Assembly: GCA_045126855.1 (NCBI GenBank)
Contig: JBGVPG010000008.1
Span: 66,158 to 130,157, forward strand
DNA: 64,000 nucleotides
Origin: Eubacteriales bacterium
GTDB taxonomy: Bacteria; Bacillota; Clostridia; Oscillospirales; CAG-272
Direction of reading: 5' to 3'
Shown here: positions 5,217 through 59,120 of the stretch, piece by piece
How positions within the stretch are numbered: the stretch's first letter is position 1
Layout of the letters: every line of letters begins with the position of its first letter
Translations under genes and position numbers: made by a program
The notes under the pieces: generated by a model
Database searches by the model: none
Seen by the model: the letters and a program-made list of their open reading frames with translations, nothing else
Told to the model about the DNA's origin: nothing

Positions 5217-6872
5217 ATGGCAACTCTTAATAAATCCACAAAATTCAAGGGTATTGACGGACCCCTTCTTACTATTGTAATGGACGGTGTTGGTATTGCT
5301 CCCGACAACGGTGCAAACGCTGTTGCGGCAGCTCACACTCCCACTCTTGACAGACTTCTCAGAGACTATCCCAACGTTGCGATCAAGGCACACGGAACTG
5401 CCGTCGGTCTTCCCAGCGACGACGATATGGGTAACTCCGAGGTTGGACATAACGCCCTTGGCTCAGGTCAGGTATTTGCACAGGGTGCAAAGCTTGTTTC
5501 CCAGTCTATTGAGTCGGGCAAGATCTTTACCTCCGACACCTGGCAGACCCTCGTTGGCGGAGTTAAGGCAAACAACTCCACCCTTCATTTCCTCGGTCTC
5601 TTCTCCGACGGTAACGTTCACTCTCATATAGACCACCTTACCGCACTTATCAACCGTGCCAAGGAGGAGGGTGTTAAGAGAGTTAGAATTCATATTCTTC
5701 TTGACGGACGTGACGTTGGTGAGACCAGCGCTCTTGATTATGTTCTTCCTTTCGAGGACTTTCTCTCCTCCCTCCGTTCCGACGATTTTGATATTGCGAT
5801 CGCATCGGGCGGTGGCAGAATGCAGATCACCATGGACAGATACGAGGCTAACTGGGCAATGGTTGACGCCGGTTGGAAGACTCACGTTCTCGGCGAGGGC
5901 AGACATTTCGCTTCCGCAGAGGAGGCTATCACCGCTTACAGAGCAGAGTACAAGGTTATTGACCAGGATCTTCCTCCCTTTGTAATCGCAAAGGACGGTC
6001 AGCCCGTAGGTACTATCGAGGACGGCGACAGCGTTATCTTCTTCAACTTCCGTGGCGACAGATCTATTGAGATCTCAAAGGCATTTGAGAGCGGTGCTGA
6101 TTTCGATAAATTTGACAGAAAGCGTGTTCCTGCCGTTCTTTACGCAGGTATGCTTGAGTATGACGGCGACCTTCACATTCCCAGCCGTTATCTCGTTTCT
6201 CCTCCCGAGATCACCAACACTATGACAGAGTATCTCGTTGGCGCAGGCGTTAAGTCCCTTGCAATTTCCGAGACACAGAAGTACGGCCATGTAACCTATT
6301 TCTGGAACGGTAACAAGTCCGGTAAGTTCTCCGAGGAGCTTGAGACCTATATTGAGATCCCCTCCGACGTCGTTCCCTTTGAGGAGAGACCCTGGATGAA
6401 GTGCGCTGAGATCACCGATAAGCTTATCGAGTGCCTCAGAAGCGGAGAGTATAAGTATCTCCGTGTTAATTTCCCCAACGGTGATATGGTTGGTCACACA
6501 GGCTCCTTCCTTGCAACCGAGTGCTCTATGGAGGCTCTTGACCTTCAGCTTGCGAGAATTCTCAAGGTTGTAGACGAGCTTCACGGTGTAGCTCTCATCA
6601 CCGCAGACCACGGCAACGCTGATGAAATGTACGAGATTGACAAGAAGAGCGGCGCTCCCAAGGCGAATAAGGACGGCTCCTTCAAGGCTAAGACCAGCCA
6701 CACACTCAACCCCGTTCCCTTCATCGTGTACGACAACTTCTATTCCGATAATTACGACTTAAAGCAGGGCAGAGCTGATTTTGGACTTTCCAACGTAGCA
6801 GCTACTACCGTAAATATGCTTGGATACGATGCCCCCGATATGTGGGACGAAAGCATGATTTCACTGAAGTAA
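5217..6872 (+). CDS. gpmI: 2,3-bisphosphoglycerate-independent phosphoglycerate mutase
   Basis: 551 aa; phosphoserine motif GNSEVGH, DGRD, ADHGNA metal-binding motifs. Confidence 0.9.
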   Translation: MATLNKSTKFKGIDGPLLTIVMDGVGIAPDNGANAVAAAHTPTLDRLLRDYPNVAIKAHGTAVGLPSDDDMGNSEVGHNALGSGQVFAQGAKLVSQSIESGKIFTSDTWQTLVGGVKANNSTLHFLGLFSDGNVHSHIDHLTALINRAKEEGVKRVRIHILLDGRDVGETSALDYVLPFEDFLSSLRSDDFDIAIASGGGRMQITMDRYEANWAMVDAGWKTHVLGEGRHFASAEEAITAYRAEYKVIDQDLPPFVIAKDGQPVGTIEDGDSVIFFNFRGDRSIEISKAFESGADFDKFDRKRVPAVLYAGMLEYDGDLHIPSRYLVSPPEITNTMTEYLVGAGVKSLAISETQKYGHVTYFWNGNKSGKFSEELETYIEIPSDVVPFEERPWMKCAEITDKLIECLRSGEYKYLRVNFPNGDMVGHTGSFLATECSMEALDLQLARILKVVDELHGVALITADHGNADEMYEIDKKSGAPKANKDGSFKAKTSHTLNPVPFIVYDNFYSDNYDLKQGRADFGLSNVAATTVNMLGYDAPDMWDESMISLK

Positions 6873-6926
6873 TTTGACGTCAACGGTGGCGATTTTTCGT
6901 GCGCTCACCCCCGAAAGCTATAATCT

Positions 6927-48287: not shown

Positions 48288-48305
48288 GCTATCGAAAAAA
48301 ATAAT

Positions 48306-48428
48306 GCTTATCAAGAGTGGTGGAGGGACTGGCCCTGTGAAACCCGGCAACCTGTTTTTTCAAGGTGCTAATTCCCGATAGATGAGTTGTGCTCAAAAGC
48401 TCGGGGGTCAAGTGCCTCCCGAGCTTTT
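48306..48428 (+). promoter_or_regulatory. SAM-I (S-box) riboswitch with terminator expression platform
   Basis: CTTATCAAGAGTGGTGGAGGGACTGGCCCTGTGAAACCCGGCAACC...GGTGCTAATTCC...GATGAG matches the S-box core; terminator AAAAGCTCGGG...CCCGAGCTTTT 48395-48428. Confidence 0.9.
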
Positions 48429-48450
48429 GATATATACGAAAGGAAACAAT

Positions 48451-49629
48451 ATGAAAAAGATTCTTTTTACATCCGAGTCTGTTACTGAGGGACATCCCGA
48501 CAAAATCTGCGACAAAATATCGGATGCAATTCTTGATGAAATGCTTGCACAGGATCCTATGTCCCGTGTAGCATGTGAGACCTTTGCCACAACGGGTATA
48601 ATTACCGTTATGGGTGAGATCACCACAAAGGCGCGCGTTGATATTCAGAAGATCGTGCGTGACACGGTAACCGAGATCGGCTATGACAGGGCAAAGTACG
48701 GCTTTGATGCAGGTACTTGTGCCGTTCTCAGCTCTATTCACGAGCAGAGCGCGGATATCGCTCTTGGCGTTGATAAGTGCCTTGAGGCAAAGGAGGGCGA
48801 GTACGACCAGCTGGACACCGGTGCAGGTGACCAGGGCCTTATGTTCGGATATGCTTGTGATGAGACTCCCGAGCTTATGCCTCTGCCCATTTCTCTTGCT
48901 CACAAGCTTGCAAAGCGCCTTACCGAGGTAAGAAAGAACGGAACGCTCTCCTACCTTCGTCCTGACGGAAAGACCCAGGTTACCATTGAATATATCGACG
49001 GTGTTCCCAGCCGTGTGGACACTATCGTAGTATCCTCTCAGCATTCTGCTGACGTTGACAGCGCTACTATTCGTAAGGATATTATTGACAAGGTTATTCT
49101 TCCTATCATTCCCGGTGAGCTTCTTGACGGAAAGGTTAATATTTACGTTAACCCTACCGGCCGCTTTGTAATCGGCGGTCCTCAGGGTGACACAGGCCTC
49201 ACGGGTAGAAAGATCATCGTTGATACCTACGGCGGTTACTCCCGTCACGGCGGTGGCGCATTCTCCGGCAAGGACCCCACAAAGGTTGACCGTAGTGCAT
49301 CCTACGCAGCAAGATACGTTGCCAAGAATATCGTTAAGGCAGGTCTTGCTAAGAAGTGCGAGGTTCAGATCGCATACGCAATCGGTATTGCAAAGCCCGT
49401 ATCGGTTATGATCGATACATTCGGCACTGCAACCGTTGATGAGGAGAAGATCGTTGCGGCTGTAAATCAGCTCGTTGATCTTCGTCCTGCAGCAATCATT
49501 AAGAAGTTCGAGCTTAGAAAGCCTATTTACAAGCAGCTCGCAGCCTATGGACACATGGGTAGAGAAGAGCTTGGCGTAAAGTGGGAAGAGACCGACATTG
49601 CGGACAAGCTTGCAGAGCTTTGCAAGTAA
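48451..49629 (+). CDS. metK: S-adenosylmethionine synthetase
   Basis: start ATG 48451 ([18 protein letters not shown]); [15 protein letters not shown] motifs; the track ORF start 48382 lies inside the riboswitch. Confidence 0.95.
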
Positions 49630-49642
49630 TTACAGAATATTT

Positions 49643-49675
49643 AAAAGAGGGACACCGAAGTGTCCCTCTTTTTTT
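49643..49675. terminator. bidirectional terminator between metK and the lipoprotein operon
   Basis: AGAGGGACAC CGAA GTGTCCCTCT flanked by A-run and T-run. Confidence 0.8.
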
Positions 49676-49691
49676 GATCTAATTACTGGTT

Positions 49692-52600
49692 TTACTGTGC
49701 TGCGGGCATTGCAACGGTGTAGCCGTAGCCAAGCACAAAGCCCATGTTGTTCTGATGCATTGCAATGTAATCTCCCATCTTGAGGCCCTCGTGATTCATT
49801 GCGTCCATTGTAGGATCACCGGTAAGGGCTGTCAGAAGGGTCTCGCCGTTGAAGATACCAACGCCGCCTGCGCAGGTATTGAAGACGGGAGCCTGACCGC
49901 CAGTGGAAGCAACTGCCTGAGCAACGAACTGGTTGCCATAGCCGATGGGCTTGCCTGTACCTGCGTGAGGTGCAGTGTACTTATCACTCATATCCATATA
50001 GGTGATGCCACCCTTGGTGAAGCTGCCGTCGAGGTCGTCGGTGCCGTTCATCATTTCGGCAACGGTTTCGCCCTGAGCGAGCTGGATCATTACGATGTTC
50101 ATATATACGGTGCCGCCGGAGGTATTTCCGTTCTCATCCTCCTGGGTGATATAGGTGGTGCCAAGAACGCCCTGAAGGATATAACCCAGCTGCTTGATCT
50201 GCTGAGCAGTACCTGTAACGCCCATTGCCTTAAACCAAGCCTCCTCGCCGGTTACGAAGGTCCAGATTTCTGTTGCAGCATCGATGTTTACCACACCGCC
50301 GCACTTATCGGTTCTGTTCTCGCCGGTGTGAGCGGTCTGAGAAATAATTACGGGACCGCCGCACTTGGTGATAGAGGAGTTAGTAACGTTGAGGGTTGCT
50401 GCAGGGTAGTTCTCTCTGGGATATTCATCCTCAGACTGAACGATGTTTGTTGCCCAGATGAAAATGTGGTTCTGCCAGGAGTTGTAAAGCTTACACTCAT
50501 TAAGATTTGCGGTTGTGAAGTCACCGTCGATGAAGAAGCTGATGTAGAAGGCTTCCATTCTTACGTTCTCGAGATTTGCTTCCTGGTAAATAACCTTCAT
50601 ACCGATAAGACCTCTCATATCACGGTCTGCAGTCATTACGTTGTCGGTATTGGGGTTATCGTCTCTCATATAGAGGCTATTGATGTTAAGCTTGTACTGA
50701 GTGTGATCGTAGTTGCCATCGGTAGCGGGTGCGGTAAATCTGAAGAGCTGACCGTTAGATACGGTGTCACCCTGATTACCTGTTCCGGGGGCACATACGT
50801 TGGGAAGGTTATAGGAGAATACGGTGTAGTAGTTACCGTAAAGACTGAAGGTCTTTGTGGGGCTGTCGTTTACGTGGTGGAAAATAGTAAGATAGTCCCA
50901 AAGCTCGTTGTTGCGGTTTGCGCCAACGAAGTATTCAGCAGGAATATCGGTGGTCTTGATGATAAGGTCGTTGTGAATTACGAGACCTGCAAGATTCTCG
51001 GGTCTTACAGCGCCCTTGGTTTTAAGGAAGTCGTCAACGATCTGGGGCTGAGTTCTGGTTTCCCCGGTGAGCCAATCACCGATATTTGTTTCATTTGCGT
51101 TGGTGAGATAGTTAAGCTCCCAAGCCTCGTAGATGTTATAACCGTCAACAACGGTAACGTCGAGAGATCTGGTCATTTCAGCCTCATTGCCATCAACGCC
51201 GTGAAGGGGACGTGTCTTAATGGTAAATGTCTTGCCGATTGCTTCCTCGGTGAAATCAATGCTGTTCTTTTCTGCGTTGATAACAACGTACTTGTCAAGC
51301 TCATCGCCTTCAAGAGTTACGCTATTAAGAACGATCTCGAAATAGCTTACGTAAGAGGAGAAGCCTTCAACGTAGTTATCATTCTCATCAAGAATGGTAA
51401 GAGAAAGCTTGAAGATGAAGGGATTGTCATCGCCTACAACGTAGCCGTACTCCTTGTTAAGGAAGAGTTCCTTCTTGGAGTCAAGTCCGGAGAGAGAGGC
51501 GGGCATATCTACGCCGAAGATATAGTAGTTGATGTTAGGGTCGATAACTGCGATAGTAAGCTTTTCGGATACAACGCCGCCGTAGGATGCGGTGATGTAG
51601 TAATCGTCGTTGCTGATTACTTCTACGTCAAGGTGGCTGAGGTCAACTGTAACACCGTCAAGAACGCTACGTGTGACAACAGAGTCGTCAGAAAGAGTGA
51701 GAAGAACCGAGAGAGTGCTAGCATCAAATGCCTCGCCAACGGGATGCTCAACCTTAACGCTGTTGGTGTTAATGGTGATCTTCTTGATAGAAAGAACTGT
51801 GAGTGTGTACTCAGCGGTAATGCTTTCGTCATCAAGATACTTAGCGGTGATCTTGAACTCGCCGGCTTCGGTAACCTCAAGGGAGGAGAAGGAAAGCTTT
51901 GCGTTCTCAATAGTTTTGGTAGTACCGTTATTAAGAGTGGCGGTAGCGGTTACGCCGCTGGTGTCGATCTTGTCACCGAAGACAAGCTTGCCGTTTGCAG
52001 CCTCGTATCCGGTGGTCTTAATGACCATGGAAACAGCTACGGGAGGAGTGGTAGAAAGGGTGAGCTCTGCGGTCTGATTCTTGTAGGTAACGGTTACAAG
52101 AGTGCCATTCTGCTCAACGGTGAGGTCCTTGAGATCAACCTTAAGTCTTGCGCCGTTGTTATAGTTTGCATATACGATCATATTATCGTAAACAAACTCA
52201 GTGCCCTCGGTAATAACGGTATCGATGCTGTCGCCGTCGATCTCAATACCGGTGAGGAGGATCTCCTGCACGGTGATTTCAAGCTCAGTCTTCTTGCCCA
52301 TATAGGTAATGGTAAGAGTCTGAGTGCCGAGCTCGGATGTATCGATGTTGCCGCCGTTGTGCTTGATGTTAGCGTTGGTGGCAACCTCCTGAGTTTCCTC
52401 GGTGCCGTTGTTATACTTAACAAGAATTACGATCTTGTCGAAGTTGATAATGTCGTTCTGGAAGACGTTGGTGTTAATACCGGAGAGATACTGAATACTC
52501 TCAACGGTACGATTTGTTCCGATAGCCTTGTCGTTTACAACTACCTCATAAGAGGTGCTGAAGTCCTTGTAGCTAACGGTAAGACTTTTCTTACCAGCGG

Positions 52601-52838
52601 TGGAGGTGTCAATGGTACCAAAGGTAAGCTGAGATGCCTCAACGTTCTCGGTAGAGCCATCGTTATAAGTAACGATCGCCTTTACACCGGAGAAATCGGG
52701 GGTATCGCCAATGGTGTACTCGGTCTTAAGACCTTCGGTGATTTCGATGCTCTGAACCTGCTTCTGTCCGCGACAGCCGGTGAGAAGAAGGGTCACGGTG
52801 AGAATGAGGAGGAGTGCTAAGGATAAAAACTTTTTCAT
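49692..52838 (-). CDS. 1,048-aa lipoprotein: five tandem Ig-like repeats + ~600-aa unassigned C-terminal region
   Basis: start ATG 52838 (GGAG 6 nt upstream); lipobox LLTGC; five ~80-aa repeats with pattern YTIGD..D.SG....YNDG....DTS..G...LTV.Y; remainder unassigned. Confidence 0.85.
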   Translation of the reverse strand: MKKFLSLALLLILTVTLLLTGCRGQKQVQSIEITEGLKTEYTIGDTPDFSGVKAIVTYNDGSTENVEASQLTFGTIDTSTAGKKSLTVSYKDFSTSYEVVVNDKAIGTNRTVESIQYLSGINTNVFQNDIINFDKIVILVKYNNGTEETQEVATNANIKHNGGNIDTSELGTQTLTITYMGKKTELEITVQEILLTGIEIDGDSIDTVITEGTEFVYDNMIVYANYNNGARLKVDLKDLTVEQNGTLVTVTYKNQTAELTLSTTPPVAVSMVIKTTGYEAANGKLVFGDKIDTSGVTATATLNNGTTKTIENAKLSFSSLEVTEAGEFKITAKYLDDESITAEYTLTVLSIKKITINTNSVKVEHPVGEAFDASTLSVLLTLSDDSVVTRSVLDGVTVDLSHLDVEVISNDDYYITASYGGVVSEKLTIAVIDPNINYYIFGVDMPASLSGLDSKKELFLNKEYGYVVGDDNPFIFKLSLTILDENDNYVEGFSSYVSYFEIVLNSVTLEGDELDKYVVINAEKNSIDFTEEAIGKTFTIKTRPLHGVDGNEAEMTRSLDVTVVDGYNIYEAWELNYLTNANETNIGDWLTGETRTQPQIVDDFLKTKGAVRPENLAGLVIHNDLIIKTTDIPAEYFVGANRNNELWDYLTIFHHVNDSPTKTFSLYGNYYTVFSYNLPNVCAPGTGNQGDTVSNGQLFRFTAPATDGNYDHTQYKLNINSLYMRDDNPNTDNVMTADRDMRGLIGMKVIYQEANLENVRMEAFYISFFIDGDFTTANLNECKLYNSWQNHIFIWATNIVQSEDEYPRENYPAATLNVTNSSITKCGGPVIISQTAHTGENRTDKCGGVVNIDAATEIWTFVTGEEAWFKAMGVTGTAQQIKQLGYILQGVLGTTYITQEDENGNTSGGTVYMNIVMIQLAQGETVAEMMNGTDDLDGSFTKGGITYMDMSDKYTAPHAGTGKPIGYGNQFVAQAVASTGGQAPVFNTCAGGVGIFNGETLLTALTGDPTMDAMNHEGLKMGDYIAMHQNNMGFVLGYGYTVAMPAAQ

Positions 52839-52865
52839 AATTTTCTCCATTTCCGTCTTTCGACT

Positions 52866-53264
52866 TTATTTAAAAATTATTTTTATTGTATCGCTTTGTT
52901 GAGTTCCGTCTGCCGAGGTTACGGTGATGTCGATAGTACCCTTGGAGGTAAAAGTAACAAGACCGTTTTCGTCGACCGAAACGAATGAATTTTGCTTATC
53001 GTAGTTGAAGGTAACCTTGCCGTTGGTGGCATTGTCGGGCGTTACGACCCATACAAGCTGGTACTGGCGGTTTCCGTTTTCGTCAGGAGAGAGGATAACG
53101 ACCTTGGATCCCGTTGAGGTATACTGTGCGTTTTCCTCAATAATCTCGACCTGGCTGACGTATATAACTTCATTGAAGGTCTTGTGCTTAAGACCGAAAA
53201 GCGTTACGGCTACGATAGAAAGGCCGTAAATCACTCCAATAATAATGACAACTGACTTTTTCAT
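52866..53264 (-). CDS. N-terminally membrane-anchored single Ig-like (Big_2-like) domain protein
   Basis: 132 aa; TM VVIIIGVIYGLSIVAVTLFGL; VTPDNATNGKVTF...VDENGLVTF..GT..ITVTS; ATG abuts upstream stop. Confidence 0.75.
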   Translation of the reverse strand: MKKSVVIIIGVIYGLSIVAVTLFGLKHKTFNEVIYVSQVEIIEENAQYTSTGSKVVILSPDENGNRQYQLVWVVTPDNATNGKVTFNYDKQNSFVSVDENGLVTFTSKGTIDITVTSADGTQQSDTIKIIFK

Positions 53265-54962
53265 TTAATTCTCCTTATAATAAAGCTTTATGGTGGAGAA
53301 GTAGAGGTATACTCTGTAAAGCATACAGCCAAGTCCTACGAGGAAGATCTTTAAATATACGGTATCAAGCGAGAGAGAACCAAGTTTGATAACGCCTATA
53401 GCCTCACTCTTATCGAGAAGAAGGAGGAAGGTCGCGCCTGCGGTAAGGAAGGCAATTATAAAGGCGGTAAGAGTTGCTTTTGTCTCGTTAGGATTGTTAT
53501 CCGTCGCGCCAACTGTTGCATAGATCTCATACTGAGGATTAAGCAGATCCTGCTCGGCACAGTACATAAGATGTGCAAAGTAAATCGTGAGAATTCCAAG
53601 CATAAGAACTATTGCATCTAACGCACCGAGGTTAGACTGTGTAATCAAAATAACCGTGGTTGCAATAAGACCAATGATGCAGTAAAGTGCATCGGGCATA
53701 AGCTTGGAGAAGAGAAGTATATCGGGATTGGTAGGCTGTGTTTTGATAAGATACGCAGCACGTCCGTCTCTTGAATAAATGCTGGACGCCGTTGTGTTGG
53801 CATTCAGAGCAATGAGAAGTATGATCATTACGTTGAAGGTAATAACCAGGCTGTCTCCTATTTCGTCGGTGTTCATAGCATAGAACAGACGGTTAAGAAG
53901 GAAGGTCAGAAGGGGAATGGAAATCAAAATACCTACGTTTGAGAATGCTCTCGTGGGATTTTTGATTGCAGAAATAAACTCGGTAAAGAAGGTTGTAAGC
54001 TTCTTTGAATGAACAATGTTCTTTCTGGGCTTCACAGCCTTTTTCAGATACTCGAAGGGGGTACTTGCCATCTTGTAGAAGATGGGGAGCACGATGATCA
54101 TACCGACTGCAAGGCAGCCTACGGTCATTCCCAGAAGAATAAGGAAACGGACAATAGTATCCACAGCGGAGAAGCTTACGTAAATAATATCGTATATCTC
54201 GCCAAGGAACATCAGGGTCAGATCATAGTAGAATTTGAAATCAACTGCAAACTGAGCGAGTCTTCGCTGAATATTCAGGGTGATGATGGGCCATGTTGCA
54301 AGAAGGTCAAGATTCTTGGGTATAAGAGAAACCGCAAGGAACAGACCTACGATAACACCCGAAACAAGAACAATAAGAGTTCCTATCTGAAGATATCTGT
54401 TCTGCCTGAAAATATTGGAGATCCACATAGCAGGAACAGAAAGAATAGTGCCGACTGCTACTGTGAAAAGTGAAACGAGGGTGAAGCAAACTATGATCCA
54501 AAGGTATGTCCACGCGGGATAACCGTGGAGAATATAGTATGCGAAGAAGAGTGGGATAATAAAACCGAAGTTTCTCTTCAGCTCAAATGCGAAGAAGATT
54601 ATGAGCTTCGAAAGGAATACCTGTATAGGTTTACAGGGAAGTGTGAGCAGAATTGCGTTGTCGCGGGAGAAGTAAATTGCCTTCGTAAGTCCTGCGGTAC
54701 AGGAGATTATAGATGCAATCAGCATAACGCCAAAGGCAATAGACATTACGGTTGTGGGTGTTCTCTGTACTGAACTGAATATACCGAGGTAATTCACGAG
54801 ATAAAGGAGAACCGCCAGAACTGCGGTTATCACCGCAAACTTCAGCAAAGCAAACACTATGTTGACAAACAACTGGAAGGGGCTTATCTTCTCACGCTCG
54901 AGGGCCTTGAGATTCAGCTTTTCCTTCAGCTGCATCTTAACGAGTGTAATTAAGTTTTTCAT
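53265..54962 (-). CDS. polytopic membrane protein, putative ABC-exporter permease
   Basis: 565 aa, >=12 hydrophobic helices, no soluble domain; 3 nt after the ABC ATPase fusion gene; family assignment from memory only. Confidence 0.7.
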   Translation of the reverse strand: MKNLITLVKMQLKEKLNLKALEREKISPFQLFVNIVFALLKFAVITAVLAVLLYLVNYLGIFSSVQRTPTTVMSIAFGVMLIASIISCTAGLTKAIYFSRDNAILLTLPCKPIQVFLSKLIIFFAFELKRNFGFIIPLFFAYYILHGYPAWTYLWIIVCFTLVSLFTVAVGTILSVPAMWISNIFRQNRYLQIGTLIVLVSGVIVGLFLAVSLIPKNLDLLATWPIITLNIQRRLAQFAVDFKFYYDLTLMFLGEIYDIIYVSFSAVDTIVRFLILLGMTVGCLAVGMIIVLPIFYKMASTPFEYLKKAVKPRKNIVHSKKLTTFFTEFISAIKNPTRAFSNVGILISIPLLTFLLNRLFYAMNTDEIGDSLVITFNVMIILLIALNANTTASSIYSRDGRAAYLIKTQPTNPDILLFSKLMPDALYCIIGLIATTVILITQSNLGALDAIVLMLGILTIYFAHLMYCAEQDLLNPQYEIYATVGATDNNPNETKATLTAFIIAFLTAGATFLLLLDKSEAIGVIKLGSLSLDTVYLKIFLVGLGCMLYRVYLYFSTIKLYYKEN

Positions 54963-54965
54963 TCC

Positions 54966-57233
54966 TTAGTTGCCCTCGCTGGTAATACCGAGAATATCGT
55001 CACCGTCGATGCTTACGACGGGAGCGCCTTCCTCGGCGTAGATTGTATCAAGATAGAATTGTTCAAGATCCATATTGCGTCTCTCAAGCTCCTTAACGCT
55101 TGCAGCAGCACGGATCTTACCTTTTCTGATAATTGCGATCTTGTCGCAGATCTTCTCAACGACGTCGATGATGTGAGAGGAGAAGAATACGATGTTACCC
55201 TTGGCAGCATGCTCCTTCATACATTCCTTAACCTCGTGAATACTCGTGGGGTCAAGACCTGTGAGGGGCTCGTCCAGGATCCATACCTTGGGATTGTGAA
55301 CCAGGGCCGCCATAATAGCGATCTTCTGCTTCATACCGTGGGAGTAGGTCTTCATCTGGTTATCAAATGCGCCCTGGAGCTGGAAGCGTGTTACCATTCT
55401 CTCAATGGTCTCGTCACGCTCTTCCTTGCTTACGTTGTAAAGGTCAGCTACGTAGTTGATGTACTCACGTCCTGTGAGGTTTTCGTAAAGGGCGTAGTGA
55501 TCGGGAACAAAACCAAGGTTGAGCTTAGCCTGTACTGACTGCTTCTCAACGTCGTAACCGCAGATCTCGATACTGCCCGAGGTAACGGTTTGAATACCAA
55601 CCATGCTCTTGATGATGGTAGACTTTCCTGCACCGTTAGGGCCGAGGAAGCCGAATATCTCGCCGCCACGAACCTTGAAGGAGGCATGATCAACCGAATA
55701 GTGCTTGTTTGCACCGTATATCTTAGAAAACTGCTTTAATTCAATGCAGGGTGAAGCGTCGCCCGAAATAGGCTCGTTCACCGATTTTGCACCGAGGAAT
55801 TCCTGGAAGTCTTTTTTCATCTGTTTGTAATCTCTTTCTCTATTTCTTCTGTCCTCTGCCTTATCCCAGATCTGGAACAGCAGAGCGTACAGGAACCACA
55901 TTCCTGCGGAAATTACCACGTACACGAGGTAGAAAATAACCTGATATACAGGGTAGAAGGTCATTGTAATATTGCCAATGGTTATCTGGGCGGAAATCTC
56001 TCTGATCTTCTCAGCCCAAGGACCAAGCTTATCAACGATGAAGTCACCGTTGAGGAAGAAGAAGTCGGGGTTGTGACCAAGCTCGGTGAACCACGCATTG
56101 CAAATAAGCACGAGGATGAAGTAGCAGGCAAAGGATACCTGTGAATAGAGCCACTCCTTGAATTTCGGACGCTGGAACAATCCGAGAGCAATAAGTAGCA
56201 CGGGCATAAAGAACGCCGCGTAGTGGTTCCACCAGTACATGAAGCGGTATGCCGCAAAGGCGTTGACCTCAGACGGTGTGTTGGGCATCAGCATTGCAAA
56301 GAACGCGCCCATAACGTTGATGAACAGGCAGAAATAGAACACCTTGTCCCACTTGAATATGAGACAGAGGGGAATAATGAACATTGCCGTGTTGCAGAGG
56401 TGCAGGGGCCATGCCCAGGGTTCAAAGATGGTATCAAGGGAATAATGCTCGATAAACGCCCAGGTCATAGCAACCATGAGATATATCATGGCAAATCTCT
56501 TAACCTCATAGCTCTTGTCTTTATAATAAAGGAAGATGAGGATAGGGATGATAAATCCAAGGTAAATTACAAATCTGTGTGCCTCGGTAAGATCCTCGAT
56601 TTTGACACTCTGATCAAGGTAACCGTAGAGCGCCTGGGGAACGTAGGGAGGCATGATGGGAATGATTGCAAAGGGAAGCGTGCCGAGCAGAGACAGAACC
56701 TCATGCTTCGTTGGCAGTCGCTTGTCCGACGTCAGAATGTTCGACAATGCAAGGCTGAGACCGATGACGGTTTCAATTGCAAGGCAAACGAGTCTGGGAT
56801 CACCGGAGGTAAAGGCATTCTTACCTACGATACCGGTGGCATAGATGCCAAACAGGGCAACGTCAAGAATAAGAATCGGTACTGAGAAGAAGCGAACGAT
56901 ATTGTTGAGAGTAACAAATTTATAAAACTCATTCATCACAATGGTGAAGAGTGCTGCCCAGGTGAACCAGATGAGGAGAACTGCGATAAAGGTAAGATGC
57001 ATCTGATCACCAAATGGGATCTCATAACCGGGAAGCAGAGTCATATTAAGACCGCGGACCCAGTAGACCGCCTCTCTCTCCGACATATATCGGTAAAAGG
57101 CAACAAGACAGAGGGCCGCAACCGCAATCTTCCTTATAACAGGAAGGAAACGAAGCTTGTTATTTGCAAAATATGCTCCTGCTGTGAGAATGGCTGTTGC
57201 GAGGATAATAATCAAAGAATAAGTTAAAGCCAT
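54966..57233 (-). CDS. fusion of ~470-aa polytopic membrane domain to C-terminal ABC ATPase
   Basis: 755 aa; Walker A GPNGAGKST, signature SHGMKQK, Walker B ILDEPLTGLD; N-terminal half has ~12 TM helices with a WPLHLCN motif. Confidence 0.85.
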   Translation of the reverse strand: MALTYSLIIILATAILTAGAYFANNKLRFLPVIRKIAVAALCLVAFYRYMSEREAVYWVRGLNMTLLPGYEIPFGDQMHLTFIAVLLIWFTWAALFTIVMNEFYKFVTLNNIVRFFSVPILILDVALFGIYATGIVGKNAFTSGDPRLVCLAIETVIGLSLALSNILTSDKRLPTKHEVLSLLGTLPFAIIPIMPPYVPQALYGYLDQSVKIEDLTEAHRFVIYLGFIIPILIFLYYKDKSYEVKRFAMIYLMVAMTWAFIEHYSLDTIFEPWAWPLHLCNTAMFIIPLCLIFKWDKVFYFCLFINVMGAFFAMLMPNTPSEVNAFAAYRFMYWWNHYAAFFMPVLLIALGLFQRPKFKEWLYSQVSFACYFILVLICNAWFTELGHNPDFFFLNGDFIVDKLGPWAEKIREISAQITIGNITMTFYPVYQVIFYLVYVVISAGMWFLYALLFQIWDKAEDRRNRERDYKQMKKDFQEFLGAKSVNEPISGDASPCIELKQFSKIYGANKHYSVDHASFKVRGGEIFGFLGPNGAGKSTIIKSMVGIQTVTSGSIEICGYDVEKQSVQAKLNLGFVPDHYALYENLTGREYINYVADLYNVSKEERDETIERMVTRFQLQGAFDNQMKTYSHGMKQKIAIMAALVHNPKVWILDEPLTGLDPTSIHEVKECMKEHAAKGNIVFFSSHIIDVVEKICDKIAIIRKGKIRAAASVKELERRNMDLEQFYLDTIYAEEGAPVVSIDGDDILGITSEGN

Positions 57234-57298
57234 AAAAACCTCTAATATATATTTTGGACAAATTGCTGAAAAACCTGTCCATATTTTCGTACATTAAC

Positions 57299-57327
57299 AT
57301 TATATATCAGGCGCGCATATAAGTCAA
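57299..57327 (-). promoter_or_regulatory. sigma-A type promoter of the ABC/lipoprotein operon
   Basis: minus strand TTGACT (57327-57322), 17 nt, TATAAT (57304-57299). Confidence 0.5.
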
Positions 57328-57371
57328 TATATATAATTCTTAAACATTCTTAAATTTTTAGTCGAAAACAT

Positions 57372-57398
57372 AAAAAAGACCGTTGTAAACAACGGTCT
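57372..57398 (-). terminator. intrinsic terminator after ruvB
   Basis: AGACCGTTG / CAACGGTCT stem, T-run on minus strand. Confidence 0.7.
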
Positions 57399-57411
57399 TA
57401 ATTATAACTCT

Positions 57412-58485
57412 TTAGTTATCCAGCTCCATCATCTTCTGACCGAAAACCTGATTCCCGTTAGTTACGAACGGAATGCCAAGATGATCGTATGCAAGCTTGG
57501 TGACGCATCTTCCGCGAGGAGTTCTTGCCAAAAAGCCGATCTGCATGAGATAAGGCTCATATACGTCCTCAATGGTCACGGTTTCCTCTCCAATCGTTGC
57601 TGCCAGTGTATCCAAACCAACAGGACCTCCGCCGTAATACTTTATTATCGCTTCAAGGAGACGGCGGTCTATATTATCGAGGCCGAGCTCGTCTATTTCG
57701 AGAGACTCTAATGCATATTTCGCTATATCGGACGTAATGGTTCCGTTACCCTTTACAAGGGCAAAATCACGTACACGCTTTAAAAGTCGGTTAGCAATTC
57801 TCGGGGTACCGCGCGATCTTGATGCGATGCTGTACGCACCGTCGTCGGTTATTGCAATATCAAGAATGGTTGCAGAACGTTTTACGATCGTTGCAAGCTC
57901 CTCAGGGGTGTAAAGCTCAAGCTTCAGCAGAACACCAAATCTGTCACGCAGAGGTGTTGTAAGCTGACCTGCACGGGTCGTCGCACCAATGAGGGTGAAT
58001 TTCGGTATAGGCATATGAATAGTTCTTGCGCTCGGACCCTTGCCAATAATAATATCTATGGCATAATCCTCCATAGCAGGGTAGAGAATCTCCTCTGCAA
58101 CGCGGGATAAACGATGAATTTCGTCAATGAAGAGAACGTCACCGGGGGCAAGATTCGTAAGTATTGCTGCAAGGTCGCCTGCCTTTTCAATAGCAGGGCC
58201 TGACGTAGTGCGGATGTTGACCCCCATTTCATTCGCAATTATGGCGGAAAGGGTGGTCTTACCAAGACCGGGAGGGCCGTAGAGCAAAACGTGGTCAAGG
58301 GGCTCTCCACGAAGCTTCGCACTTTCAATATATATCTTCAAATTTGATTTCGCCTTGTCCTGACCAACGTATTCCTCGAGGGTCTTGGGACGCAGACAAT
58401 TCTCAACGTCTCCGTCGGAGATTGAGTCATATTCGTTTGACAGAATTCGGTTTTCAAAATCGAATTCGTTTACTTCTTCCATCAT
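57412..58485 (-). CDS. ruvB: Holliday junction branch migration ATPase
   Basis: 357 aa; Walker [10 protein letters not shown], Walker B IDEIHR, sensor motifs. Confidence 0.95.
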
Positions 58486-58505
58486 AAAAAATGAGTCCTT
58501 TCAGC

Positions 58506-59120
58506 TTATCTTGCAAGCTTCTTGAGAGCCAGTCTTATTATCTCACCGGTGTCGGTGATAGAGGGGTCGATTCCCTTGAGAATAGAGAGTGCCGTGGTCT
58601 TGTCATAACCCAAAACAGTAAGCGCTTCTGCGGCTTCGGAAATCGCATAACTCGGAACATAAACCGAGGCAGAAGCGGAAAAGTCGCCGCTTGCAATATC
58701 TGCTTCGAGCATTTCCTTCGACATTTTATCCTTGAGCTCAAGAATGATTCTTGCGGCGGATTTTGCGCCTATTCCGTTGGCCTTTGCGATCGCTTTTTTG
58801 TCCTCGGTGCAGATAGCAACTGCAAGCTTTTCAGGAGTCATTGTGGAGAGAATACTCATAGCCGCCTTGGGGCCTATTCCACTCACAGAGGTAAGTCTGT
58901 TAAAGCATTCTTTTTCCTCGTTTGATCCAAAGCCAAACAGCTCAATACCGTCCTCTCTTACGGCAAGATGTGTGTAAAGCTTAACGGTTTTTCCGAGCTT
59001 TGAAGCATAGGCTTCGGAGGTAAGAAGGCTGACTGTCAGCTTATATCCAACGCCGCCGCAATCGATAACGCAGCAGCTTATATCTCTGTATGCAAGCTCG
59101 CCCTGCAGGTAATAGAACAT
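58506..59120 (-). CDS. ruvA: Holliday junction DNA-binding protein
   Basis: 204 aa; OB-fold N-terminus MFYYLQGEL, HhH motifs SVSGIGPK / ANGIGAKSA. Confidence 0.95.
   Translation of the reverse strand: MFYYLQGELAYRDISCCVIDCGGVGYKLTVSLLTSEAYASKLGKTVKLYTHLAVREDGIELFGFGSNEEKECFNRLTSVSGIGPKAAMSILSTMTPEKLAVAICTEDKKAIAKANGIGAKSAARIILELKDKMSKEMLEADIASGDFSASASVYVPSYAISEAAEALTVLGYDKTTALSILKGIDPSITDTGEIIRLALKKLAR

Follow-up and report, generated by a model that had tools for sequence, protein, structure and literature searches.

A four-gene cassette of gut bacteria that joins a type V ABC exporter core to a putative TMEM164-type acyl-enzyme and a surface lipoprotein

The DNA described here, referred to as the window, is a stretch of 64,000 nucleotides from Eubacteriales bacterium (GenBank assembly GCA_045126855.1, contig JBGVPG010000008.1, positions 66,158 to 130,157), and the subject of this report is a set of four consecutive minus-strand open reading frames within it, here named A, P, B and L. 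Gene A (57233-54966) encodes a protein of 755 residues, in which a membrane module, a TMEM164-like domain and an ATP-binding cassette (ABC) ATPase follow one another. Gene P (54962-53265) encodes a permease of 565 residues with 12 transmembrane (TM) segments, and gene B (53264-52866) a protein of 132 residues with a TM anchor and a Big_2 domain of the immunoglobulin-like (Ig-like) type. Gene L (52838-49692) encodes a lipoprotein of 1048 residues when read from the ATG at 52838, or of 1052 residues from the first ATG at 52850. The shorter product is the likelier one, because a GGAG ribosome-binding site stands 6 nt upstream of the ATG at 52838, and with this start the A-P, P-B and B-L gaps are 3, 0 and 27 nt. 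The reading frames and the GGAG site thus bear out the gene order, spacing and L start proposed by the first-pass annotation of the window. The A start codon, also ATG, is preceded by an AGAGG ribosome-binding site. The cassette is flanked by metK and ruvBA, and no gene for a solute-binding protein or a regulator was found at the four-gene locus, as had been claimed. The GC content of the operon, 46.6%, is practically equal to the 45.7% of the window.

A sigma-70-type promoter, TTGACT-17-TATAAT, lies on the minus strand at 57327-57299, matches 11 of 12 consensus positions and has the best score of the region; the ruvB terminator (57399-57376) stands just upstream of it. At the other end, L and metK converge on a hairpin at 49643-49672, whose stem has 13 bp. 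It was called by the scan on the plus strand, as the end of metK, and it is likely a bidirectional terminator serving both genes, because an A-run and a T-run flank the stem and would allow it to act both ways. Transcription was read from the contigs of four bovine-gut metatranscriptome runs placed on 48300-58600, the window stretch being kept at 98-99% identity in bovine-gut metagenomes and metatranscriptomes. A single contig of 6,675 nt covers 50601-57275. The contigs have their 5' limits at 57267-57275 in three runs out of four, which places them some 25-30 nt downstream from the -10 box, and their 3' limits at 49678-49738 in three runs, matching both the promoter and the terminator hairpin by which the operon had been framed. 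The four genes form one transcribed operon, a unit of about 7.6 kb, in the bovine gut. Summed contig depth, a poor and rough measure of expression in which DNA carry-over is possible, was about 2-10 times higher in the operon than over metK and ruvB across the four runs (about 5-49 over the operon and 0-8 over most of metK/ruvB). These contigs were read as RNA because the step in depth matches the predicted promoter and terminator in several runs, unlike DNA. The data suggest that the cassette is strongly expressed in vivo, above the adjoining housekeeping genes metK and ruvB, and therefore that it is in use.

The four genes keep company in other genomes, a check that the first-pass annotation had called for. 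When one genome per species was scanned, 65 loci were found, and the counts given here are limited to those with enough flank. Fused A lies directly upstream of P in 57/57 loci, a B-like gene is the next one after P in 63/63 (61 identified by tblastn, the other two from their open frames), and the L head occurs in every one of the 41 loci whose flank measures 7 kb or more. Three Bacilli loci have L upstream of A and not downstream. All four proteins share one evolutionary history, with distance-matrix correlations of r = 0.33-0.84, and no other flanking gene is conserved among the related loci, whose neighbours vary. The four genes are a self-contained cassette inherited as a unit. All 65 loci come from metagenome-assembled genomes (MAGs) of gut (animal or human) and rumen origin, under the labels Clostridia, Eubacteriales, Oscillospiraceae, Christensenellales or Bacilli. 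The cassette is single-copy in the 1.62-Mb source genome, and its occurrence is rare and patchy: 2 of 301 genomes from across the class have it, and in the family 4 of 151 do. Two same-genus genomes are without it; there, ruvB lies 343 and 28 bases from the contig end (G327:C43:1-1400 and G418:C20:1-1200, loci L134 and L135), and the 343 bp that follow ruvB in the first are unrelated to the cassette. Because both assemblies break exactly at the site of the cassette, its absence could partly reflect an assembly break at a variable region. A 4.9-kb contig with A and P (L057, JAILNJ010000179.1) is filed under a Gammaproteobacteria MAG; its percent identities to the window proteins (tblastn) are those of L055, from a Bacillales MAG, and it is probably a binning error and not a proteobacterial occurrence.

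Profile hidden Markov model searches with Pfam, proposed at the outset as a check, assign TMEM164 and ABC_tran to A, Big_2 to B and Big_3 to L, and nothing to P. The permease is nearly all transmembrane, as first described: hydropathy gives 12 TM segments in two halves of six, joined by a basic linker loop with 10 Lys/Arg, and the longest loop has no more than 59 residues. Each half opens with a basic amphipathic stretch and carries an SRD...P motif, repeated in the TM2-TM3 loop, as a putative coupling-loop motif, YFSRDNAILLTLPC at residues 97-110 and YSRDGRAAYLIKTQPT at 396-411. Through this repeated motif the halves align at equivalent positions, with weak support (hhalign E 0.004, probability 8%). 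In type V transporters the coupling helices lie in the TM2-TM3 loop (PMC11406275). Having two such motifs, P should therefore bind two copies of A through their ATPase domains.

An AlphaFold2 model of P reached a predicted local distance difference test (pLDDT) value of 76. In Foldseek its best full-length match was Rv1217c (8k1o_A), followed by NosY, Wzm, CcmB and KpsM, with ABCA and ABCG also among the matches; probabilities were 0.9-1.0, but E-values were weak (0.05-0.7) and TM-scores were 0.4-0.5. P itself has no Pfam match even at E = 10, while relatives at about 25-55% identity match PF16949 at 25-30 bits (cut-off 25.7), and a search of PDB sequences with P gave nothing useful. As modelled, P is a fused-halves, pseudo-dimeric permease of type V (ABC-2). 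The transporter core is thus a classic exporter layout, which had been denied to it; by its fold it probably belongs to the type V ABC-2 exporters and works as they do, with Rv1217c/1218c as the nearest solved example.

In LptB2FGC, LolCDE, MacB and FtsEX, ATP hydrolysis in the cytoplasm works on a lipid, a lipoprotein or a partner protein of the envelope. The mechanism first imagined for the cassette was modelled on FtsEX, LolCDE and MacB, and this analogy fails on the fold. These systems, LptB2FGC included, are of types VI and VII, whereas P has the 12-TM type V fold of Rv1217c, NosY and Wzm. Permeases of the FtsX type have 4 TM segments with a large periplasmic domain between TM1 and TM2, in contrast to the 12 TM segments and short loops of P, in which no Pfam match to FtsX or MacB_PCD was found; type VII structures are absent from its Foldseek matches.

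The motor of the cassette is the C-terminal part of A, residues 491-755 (55763-54969, minus strand), which matches ABC_tran (PF00005, E 6.3e-28) and is 61-93% identical across the related loci. It has a Walker A motif (GPNGAGKST, 531-539), a signature (YSHGMKQK, 630-637), a Walker B motif (ILDEP, 652-656) and an H-loop (SSHI, 685-688), and the Q-loop position reads VPDH, without the Q. Rv1217c-Rv1218c of M. tuberculosis is a type V exporter (8K1M/8K1N/8K1O; PMC11406275) in which, as in P, one 12-TM polypeptide holds both halves. Its ATPase is DrrA-like and a separate protein, present in two copies, whose signature, YSxG, is non-canonical and may be compared with the YSHGMKQK of A; the structure was solved with phospholipids bound in the TM domains (PMC11406275). 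The differences are also clear: its ATPase has no fused membrane enzyme, a Big_2 adaptor and a dedicated lipoprotein are both lacking, drug efflux is the role assigned to it, and its similarity to P is about 10% in sequence, with a Foldseek E of only 0.05.

This kinship raises the question of an ordinary ABC-2 efflux or immunity pump, of the drug, bacteriocin or lantibiotic type, lying beside two unrelated surface-protein genes. The ATPase resembles DrrA-type and lantibiotic-protection ATPases, and a rifampicin efflux pump gives the best fold match to P. However, the best NCBIfam matches of the ATPase, to DrrA- and GldA-type ABC-2 ATPases, are all far under the curated family cut-offs (211 bits against 312.45 for TIGR01188, 155 against 309.75 for TIGR03740), P matches neither the LanE/G nor the DrrB permease families in Pfam or NCBIfam, and the PADLOC models of anti-phage defence give generic matches for the ATPase only and none for P, B or L, so that no defence or immunity family is matched beyond generic ATPase similarity. 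Moreover, the linkage of B and L is complete, all four genes are co-transcribed, the enzyme-domain fusion is kept in every one of the 57 loci and the four proteins have one evolutionary history. A mere pump is, consequently, hardly credible, and the earlier view that the set matches no characterised system of the lantibiotic or bacteriocin immunity kind is upheld.

What sets A apart is the domain in front of the motor. Residues 222-434 match Pfam TMEM164 (PF14808) with E 1.1e-16 and 61.5 bits against a cut-off of 25, over profile positions 10-205 of 217, and with 70 bits in the whole-genome search. Human TMEM164 (PF14808; PDB 9LW1) is a phospholipid:lyso-ether-phospholipid transacylase of the ATGY superfamily. 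By mutagenesis and a cryo-EM acyl-Cys intermediate, Cys123 was identified as its acyl-accepting nucleophile, acting with His181, and Tyr177 as the residue that positions the phospholipid (10.1101/2022.07.06.498872; PMC12830759). A carries the corresponding motifs, HRxxxY at 219-224, WPLHLCN with Cys280 and WWNHY with His337: as in TMEM164, seven TM segments hold a Cys preceded by Pro in a P-x-x-x-C motif, and a Y/F-x-x-x-His on a later helix, Y333-x-x-x-H337 being the counterpart of Y177-H181. The Cys-His spacing is the same but for one residue (57 in A and 58 in human TMEM164). In an alignment of 40 A homologues C280, P276, H219, R220, Y224 and W89 are invariant and H278, N336 and H337 are kept in at least 90%, and C280 and H337 are both invariant in ten stand-alone relatives. 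The human protein differs in being a stand-alone eukaryotic homodimer with an important Glu106, which has no conserved counterpart in A, whereas A adds a 6-TM module and a fused ATPase. A search of PDB sequences with the membrane part of A, as a single sequence and as a 40-sequence profile, returned spurious PsaJ matches only; because 9LW1 was not reached, the link to TMEM164 rests on Pfam and the motifs. On these grounds residues 216-455 (56588-55869, minus strand) may be assigned to the TMEM164 branch of the ATGY superfamily, as a putative acyl-enzyme of the TMEM164/YwaF type. The large polytopic domain that the first-pass annotation saw fused to the ATPase is therefore real as a fusion and is no transport domain, and its assignment to the Cys/His enzymes changes the mechanistic reading of the whole cassette.

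The topology of A was derived from a hydropathy plot and the positive-inside rule, with the basic loops 294-297 and 354-361 taken as inside. Hydropathy gives 12-13 TM helices, about 6 of them in residues 1-215 (57233-56589, minus strand) and 7 in the TMEM164-like part. When the helices are counted back from the cytoplasmic ATPase, C280, H337 and the H219/R220/Y224 group all come to lie at outer helix ends, and the Cys280/His337 acyl-enzyme site is thus predicted to face outward. Residues 1-215 have no Pfam match. Two candidate explanations of this N-terminal module were rejected: an internal duplication that would make A a pseudo-dimer akin to the TMEM164 homodimer (hhalign of 1-215 with 216-470, probability 0.6%), and a degenerate ABC-2 transmembrane domain, given the lack of similarity to P (hhalign, probability 0.2%). 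The source genome holds two more TMEM164/YwaF-like genes, both stand-alone, at G000:C3:12203-12880 (minus strand) and G000:C18:1872-2510 (plus strand); one is a frame of 258 residues that scores 60 bits and the other has 251 residues and scores 19.5 bits, under the cut-off. Because of these further genes, the fused copy in A is thus probably a specialised paralogue.

A profile of the membrane part of A found 592 clusters among 1.84 billion representative proteins, comprising fusions of about 720-830 residues and stand-alone proteins of about 450-510 residues that keep the Cys and the His. Ten metagenome loci have, immediately after the membrane-module gene, a second gene for an ABC ATPase with 47-52% identity to the ATPase of A. 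Where the contigs are longer, a PF16949 permease and then a TM-anchored Big_2 protein of about 300 residues come next, and the three longest loci have a lipoprotein of 770-830 residues too. Judged by these genes, the split branch appears to be the same five-part system, with membrane module and ATPase as separate adjacent genes. No homology between the L head and the split-branch lipoprotein was detectable by profile comparison. Since the two parts are fused in A and adjacent as separate genes in the split branch, the enzyme and the motor are likely to work together, by the Rosetta-stone argument. As a side observation, a membrane protein of about 240-280 residues that starts with MMTIGGTAHI directly precedes the stand-alone module in 7 of 27 loci (L094, L119, L121, L130 and others; about 6100-6900).

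L, numbered here on the 1052-residue form, has a signal peptide followed by a lipobox, LTGC, at residues 23-26 (LLLTGC) with Cys26, and a signal peptide followed by Cys was seen in all of the roughly 53 homologues read. The source genome encodes Lgt (223.7 bits). These features identify L as a probable bacterial lipoprotein, of the Lgt/Lsp substrate type, as it had been annotated. Residues 31-440 (52760-51531, minus strand) form a stalk of Big_3-type Ig repeats (Pfam Big_3, E 2.5e-19), the first of which spans residues 31-112. This first repeat is the best-conserved part of L, with a median identity of 45.7% against 32.8% for the head, and is better conserved than the head in 45 of 47 loci. 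Homologues range from 672 to 2245 residues in step with their count of Ig repeats, which runs from about 1 to 15 or more. Residues 441-1052 (51530-49695, minus strand) comprise an Ig-like domain (441-570) and a right-handed beta-helix head (571-1052; 51140-49695), modelled together by AlphaFold2 with a pLDDT of 90.4 and a predicted template-modelling score (pTM) of 0.91.

In the head, H626 and S698 (both 100%), D635, D652, E870 and several Asn are conserved, together with an xCGGPVI motif, in which GGP at 831-833 is invariant, and a WF at 872-873. A Ser/His/Asp-like set on the beta-helix could form an esterase or hydrolase site. No specific activity is supported by a family or fold match: 44 head sequences matched no Pfam family, NosD and Beta_helix included; Foldseek against PDB and BFVD gave only a generic beta-helix likeness, at TM-scores near 0.2, to phage tailspikes and to enzymes of GH49, GH28 and GH87; and a search of PDB sequences with the head gave nothing useful. 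In some cassettes, two or three L genes stand in tandem behind a single A-P-B set. The locus in GCA_965351275.1 (L137, 3380-14350) has one such set followed by three tandem L paralogues of 720, 717 and 718 residues, with about 52-80% mutual identity depending on the domain; here again metK is a neighbour of the cassette, but it is encoded on the other strand and stands upstream of A. Two L genes each are found at loci L026, L032 and L044.

B has a single Big_2 domain (Pfam, E 1.7e-8) after an N-terminal TM anchor, in agreement with its first description. The TM helix, MKKSVxILIxxIYxAxIxxVSFFGL, is nearly invariant and is the best-conserved part of the protein (median identity 60%, against 40% for the Ig domain). 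In mirror-tree comparisons, B and P covary with r = 0.84, the highest value for any pair of different proteins. B is regarded as a putative adaptor subunit. A precedent exists in LptB2FGC, where the bitopic LptC inserts its TM helix into the transporter, comparable to what is proposed for B.

In the NosDFY structures, NosD is a periplasmic right-handed beta-helix protein. NosDFYL, which serves nitrous oxide reductase maturation (7O0Y, 7ZNQ, 7QBA), combines an ABC-2/type V permease and ATPase with that beta-helix protein and a lipoprotein, much as the cassette does, and its motor is thought to drive partner proteins and not to move a solute. By this model, or by that of Lpt, mechanotransmission would be the function of the cassette: the motor would drive B and a beta-helix L docked on P, nothing would be transported and the ATGY domain would be accessory or regulatory. 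Among the structures that P matches best is NosY (7znq, 7o0y; probability 0.99-1.0), the L head is a beta-helix and the conserved TM helix of B tracks P. The likeness of P to NosY is, however, generic to the type V fold, with weak Foldseek E-values. NosF lacks a fused enzyme, and NosD, docked straight onto NosY, has no lipid anchor with an Ig stalk, whereas L places its head behind 1 to 15 or more Ig repeats (672-2245 residues in all), which is unfit for fixed docking. The head is the least conserved part of L; it lacks a NosD Pfam match or other NosD signature, and NosD is absent from its top 50 PDB fold matches. No nosZ or copper context was found at the cassette locus, which is flanked by metK and ruvBA. 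Finally, a strictly conserved Cys/His dyad points to catalysis and not to scaffolding. Mechanotransmission of this kind, which is the first-pass idea carried over to the right transporter class, is, thus, distinctly unlikely. The same variation of the stalk speaks against the mechanical actuation first suggested for L, as far as its distal head is concerned.

Taken together, the four products probably constitute one ABC envelope machine coupled to acyl transfer. From folds, motifs and topology we infer that they assemble into one membrane machine with an A2-P core. Its task can be proposed only tentatively, by analogy and with rather less than even confidence: an ATP-driven machine that would carry out acyl transfer at the outer face of the membrane, on the lipid anchor of its own lipoprotein. 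In the scheme envisaged, one P would bind two copies of A through their ATPase domains, and each A would bring its 13-TM module beside P, with the Cys280/His337 site open towards the outer leaflet. B, its conserved TM helix inserted into P or set against it and its one Ig domain held out, would position the first Big_3 domain of L, so that the machine would act on the membrane-proximal end of L. ATP-driven movement of P would lift the diacylglyceryl-Cys anchor of L from the outer leaflet, a Lol-like task performed by a type V fold, or would deliver a lipid acyl donor. Next, the fused enzyme would pass on an acyl group, carried on Cys280 as an acyl-enzyme intermediate, either to the N-terminus or anchor of L or from one place to another within them. 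What is displayed as the business end would be the beta-helix head, a glycan-binding or glycan-cleaving module held out on an Ig stalk of variable length, with the motor acting elsewhere.

Several observations direct this proposal to the membrane-proximal end of L. L appears to be a lipoprotein in every case, conservation is higher in its first domain than in its head at nearly all loci, the length of its stalk is unconstrained, and L genes are multiplied behind a single machine in the manner of clients. The fifth is the precedent of LhaT (YpjA, DUF1405) of B. subtilis, the only bacterial ATGY enzyme with a known function, which N-acetylates lipoproteins at the N-terminal Cys on the outer face of the membrane, and whose lipid donor must be flipped across the membrane in a step not yet identified (PMC12345273). 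LhaT shares with A the ATGY superfamily; as is proposed for A, it acts on the extracytoplasmic face and needs a lipid-borne donor, and it serves as the functional model for acyl transfer onto L. It differs in belonging to another branch (PF07187), which does not match A, and in being a stand-alone 6-TM protein that acts on lipoproteins generally without coupling to an ABC motor, the carrier of the Ac-HepG donor being made by PcrB. The joint transcription, the complete synteny, the split branch, the Cys/His dyad with its predicted outward position and the presence of Lgt speak for the proposal as well. Also counted in favour are the lipid-type type V fold of P, the best match of which was solved with bound phospholipids, and the best-conserved TM helix of B with its close covariation with P.

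A number of points weigh on the other side. PcrB (PF01884) and PF07187 are both absent from the source genome, so that the donor cannot be Ac-HepG here; if it were an ordinary phospholipid, as for TMEM164, it would already be in the outer leaflet and the need for ATP would be unexplained. No specific covariation of the ATGY domain with the first domain of L was found by mirror-tree (partial r = -0.08 when P and the ATPase domain are controlled for). Stand-alone membrane modules outside the split branch occur in unrelated, variable contexts with no ABC partner, and lipoproteins are not enriched beside stand-alone modules (2/38 against 8/174). The predicted outward position of the active site comes from a hydropathy plot and the positive-inside rule, and the A2:P:B:L stoichiometry and its contacts are inferred too. 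An ATP-driven machine serving one lipoprotein would, moreover, be unusual.

Some of these points lend weight to a different role, the export of a lipid or glycolipid with coupled acylation. P and the ATPase would flip or extrude a lipid, lyso-lipid or lipid-linked glycan, which explains the ATP need as flipping, and the ATGY domain would acylate or re-acylate it at the outer leaflet; B and L would be receivers or users of the lipid, as a surface enzyme or adhesin, and not the substrate. Type V ABC transporters typically handle lipids and lipid-linked polymers (compare the Wzm, KpsM, ABCA and ABCG matches and the lipids of Rv1217c), and the one studied enzyme of the TMEM164 branch acts on phospholipid/lyso-phospholipid pairs. 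The missing covariation between ATGY domain and L, and stand-alone relatives that work without a lipoprotein partner, are as this role would have them. It leaves unexplained, however, the invariable linkage of the transporter to a small adaptor and to a lipoprotein whose membrane-proximal domain is conserved, and genes for lipid or glycan synthesis are neither in the cassette nor conserved nearby in the related loci. Lipid export is accordingly considered rather unlikely as the function of the cassette.

The Cys/His domain might also work as a hydrolase. In that case P would use ATP to extract the anchor of L and the domain would deacylate it, so that the protein is released or relocated, for instance to the wall or the medium. 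The ATGY superfamily contains hydrolases and transferases with the same dyad (10.1101/2022.07.06.498872), AIG1 and ADTRP being among the hydrolases; extraction of the anchor would give the motor a purpose, and the L paralogues resemble clients. Against such shedding, which we deem very unlikely, stand the closest family, TMEM164, being a transferase, and the apparent waste of releasing a protein built with a long stalk and an anchor.

Each part of the cassette belongs to a known class, namely the type V exporters, the ATGY acyl-enzymes and the surface proteins with Ig repeats and a beta-helix, whereas no account of their combination was found in the searchable literature. Searches with TMEM164/YwaF, with the Pfam accessions and with YwaF alone found neither a functional study of a bacterial member nor a fusion of this kind. 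The cassette is not a member of the LhaT pathway, NosDFYL, the type VII ABC systems, the LanFEG/DrrAB pumps or the PADLOC defence systems, since the defining features of each were looked for and are absent. Of the ABC-powered surface machine first imagined around the lipoprotein, the single, co-travelling transcription unit therefore stands, and the architecture does resemble a machine centred on the lipoprotein, while the enzyme domain had been overlooked and the mechanistic analogy was structurally wrong.

How acyl transfer outside the cytoplasmic membrane is powered and supplied is an open problem, and here an ATGY enzyme is physically fused to an ABC motor. It is possible, but doubtful, that the cassette represents the first ATP-coupled machine for extracytoplasmic acyl transfer, in which a type V motor fused to an outward-facing Cys/His enzyme would edit the N-terminus of a dedicated lipoprotein with a bitopic Ig protein as substrate adaptor. 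Such a machine, if true, would be categorically new, would give the bacterial TMEM164/YwaF branch its first function and would offer a worked answer to the donor-flipping gap of LhaT. The cassette gives this branch a defined genetic context, and a construct of four genes allows a direct test of the coupling hypothesis. If gut commensals possess a system dedicated to lipoprotein editing, it could also bear on host sensing, because the lipid form of lipoprotein N-termini controls recognition by TLR2 (PMC12345273).

On the plus strand, an open frame of 1021 residues (49755-52820) runs antisense through nearly all of L. No family supports it, and since the gene on the other strand is conserved and expressed, the frame seems to be a side effect of codon bias.

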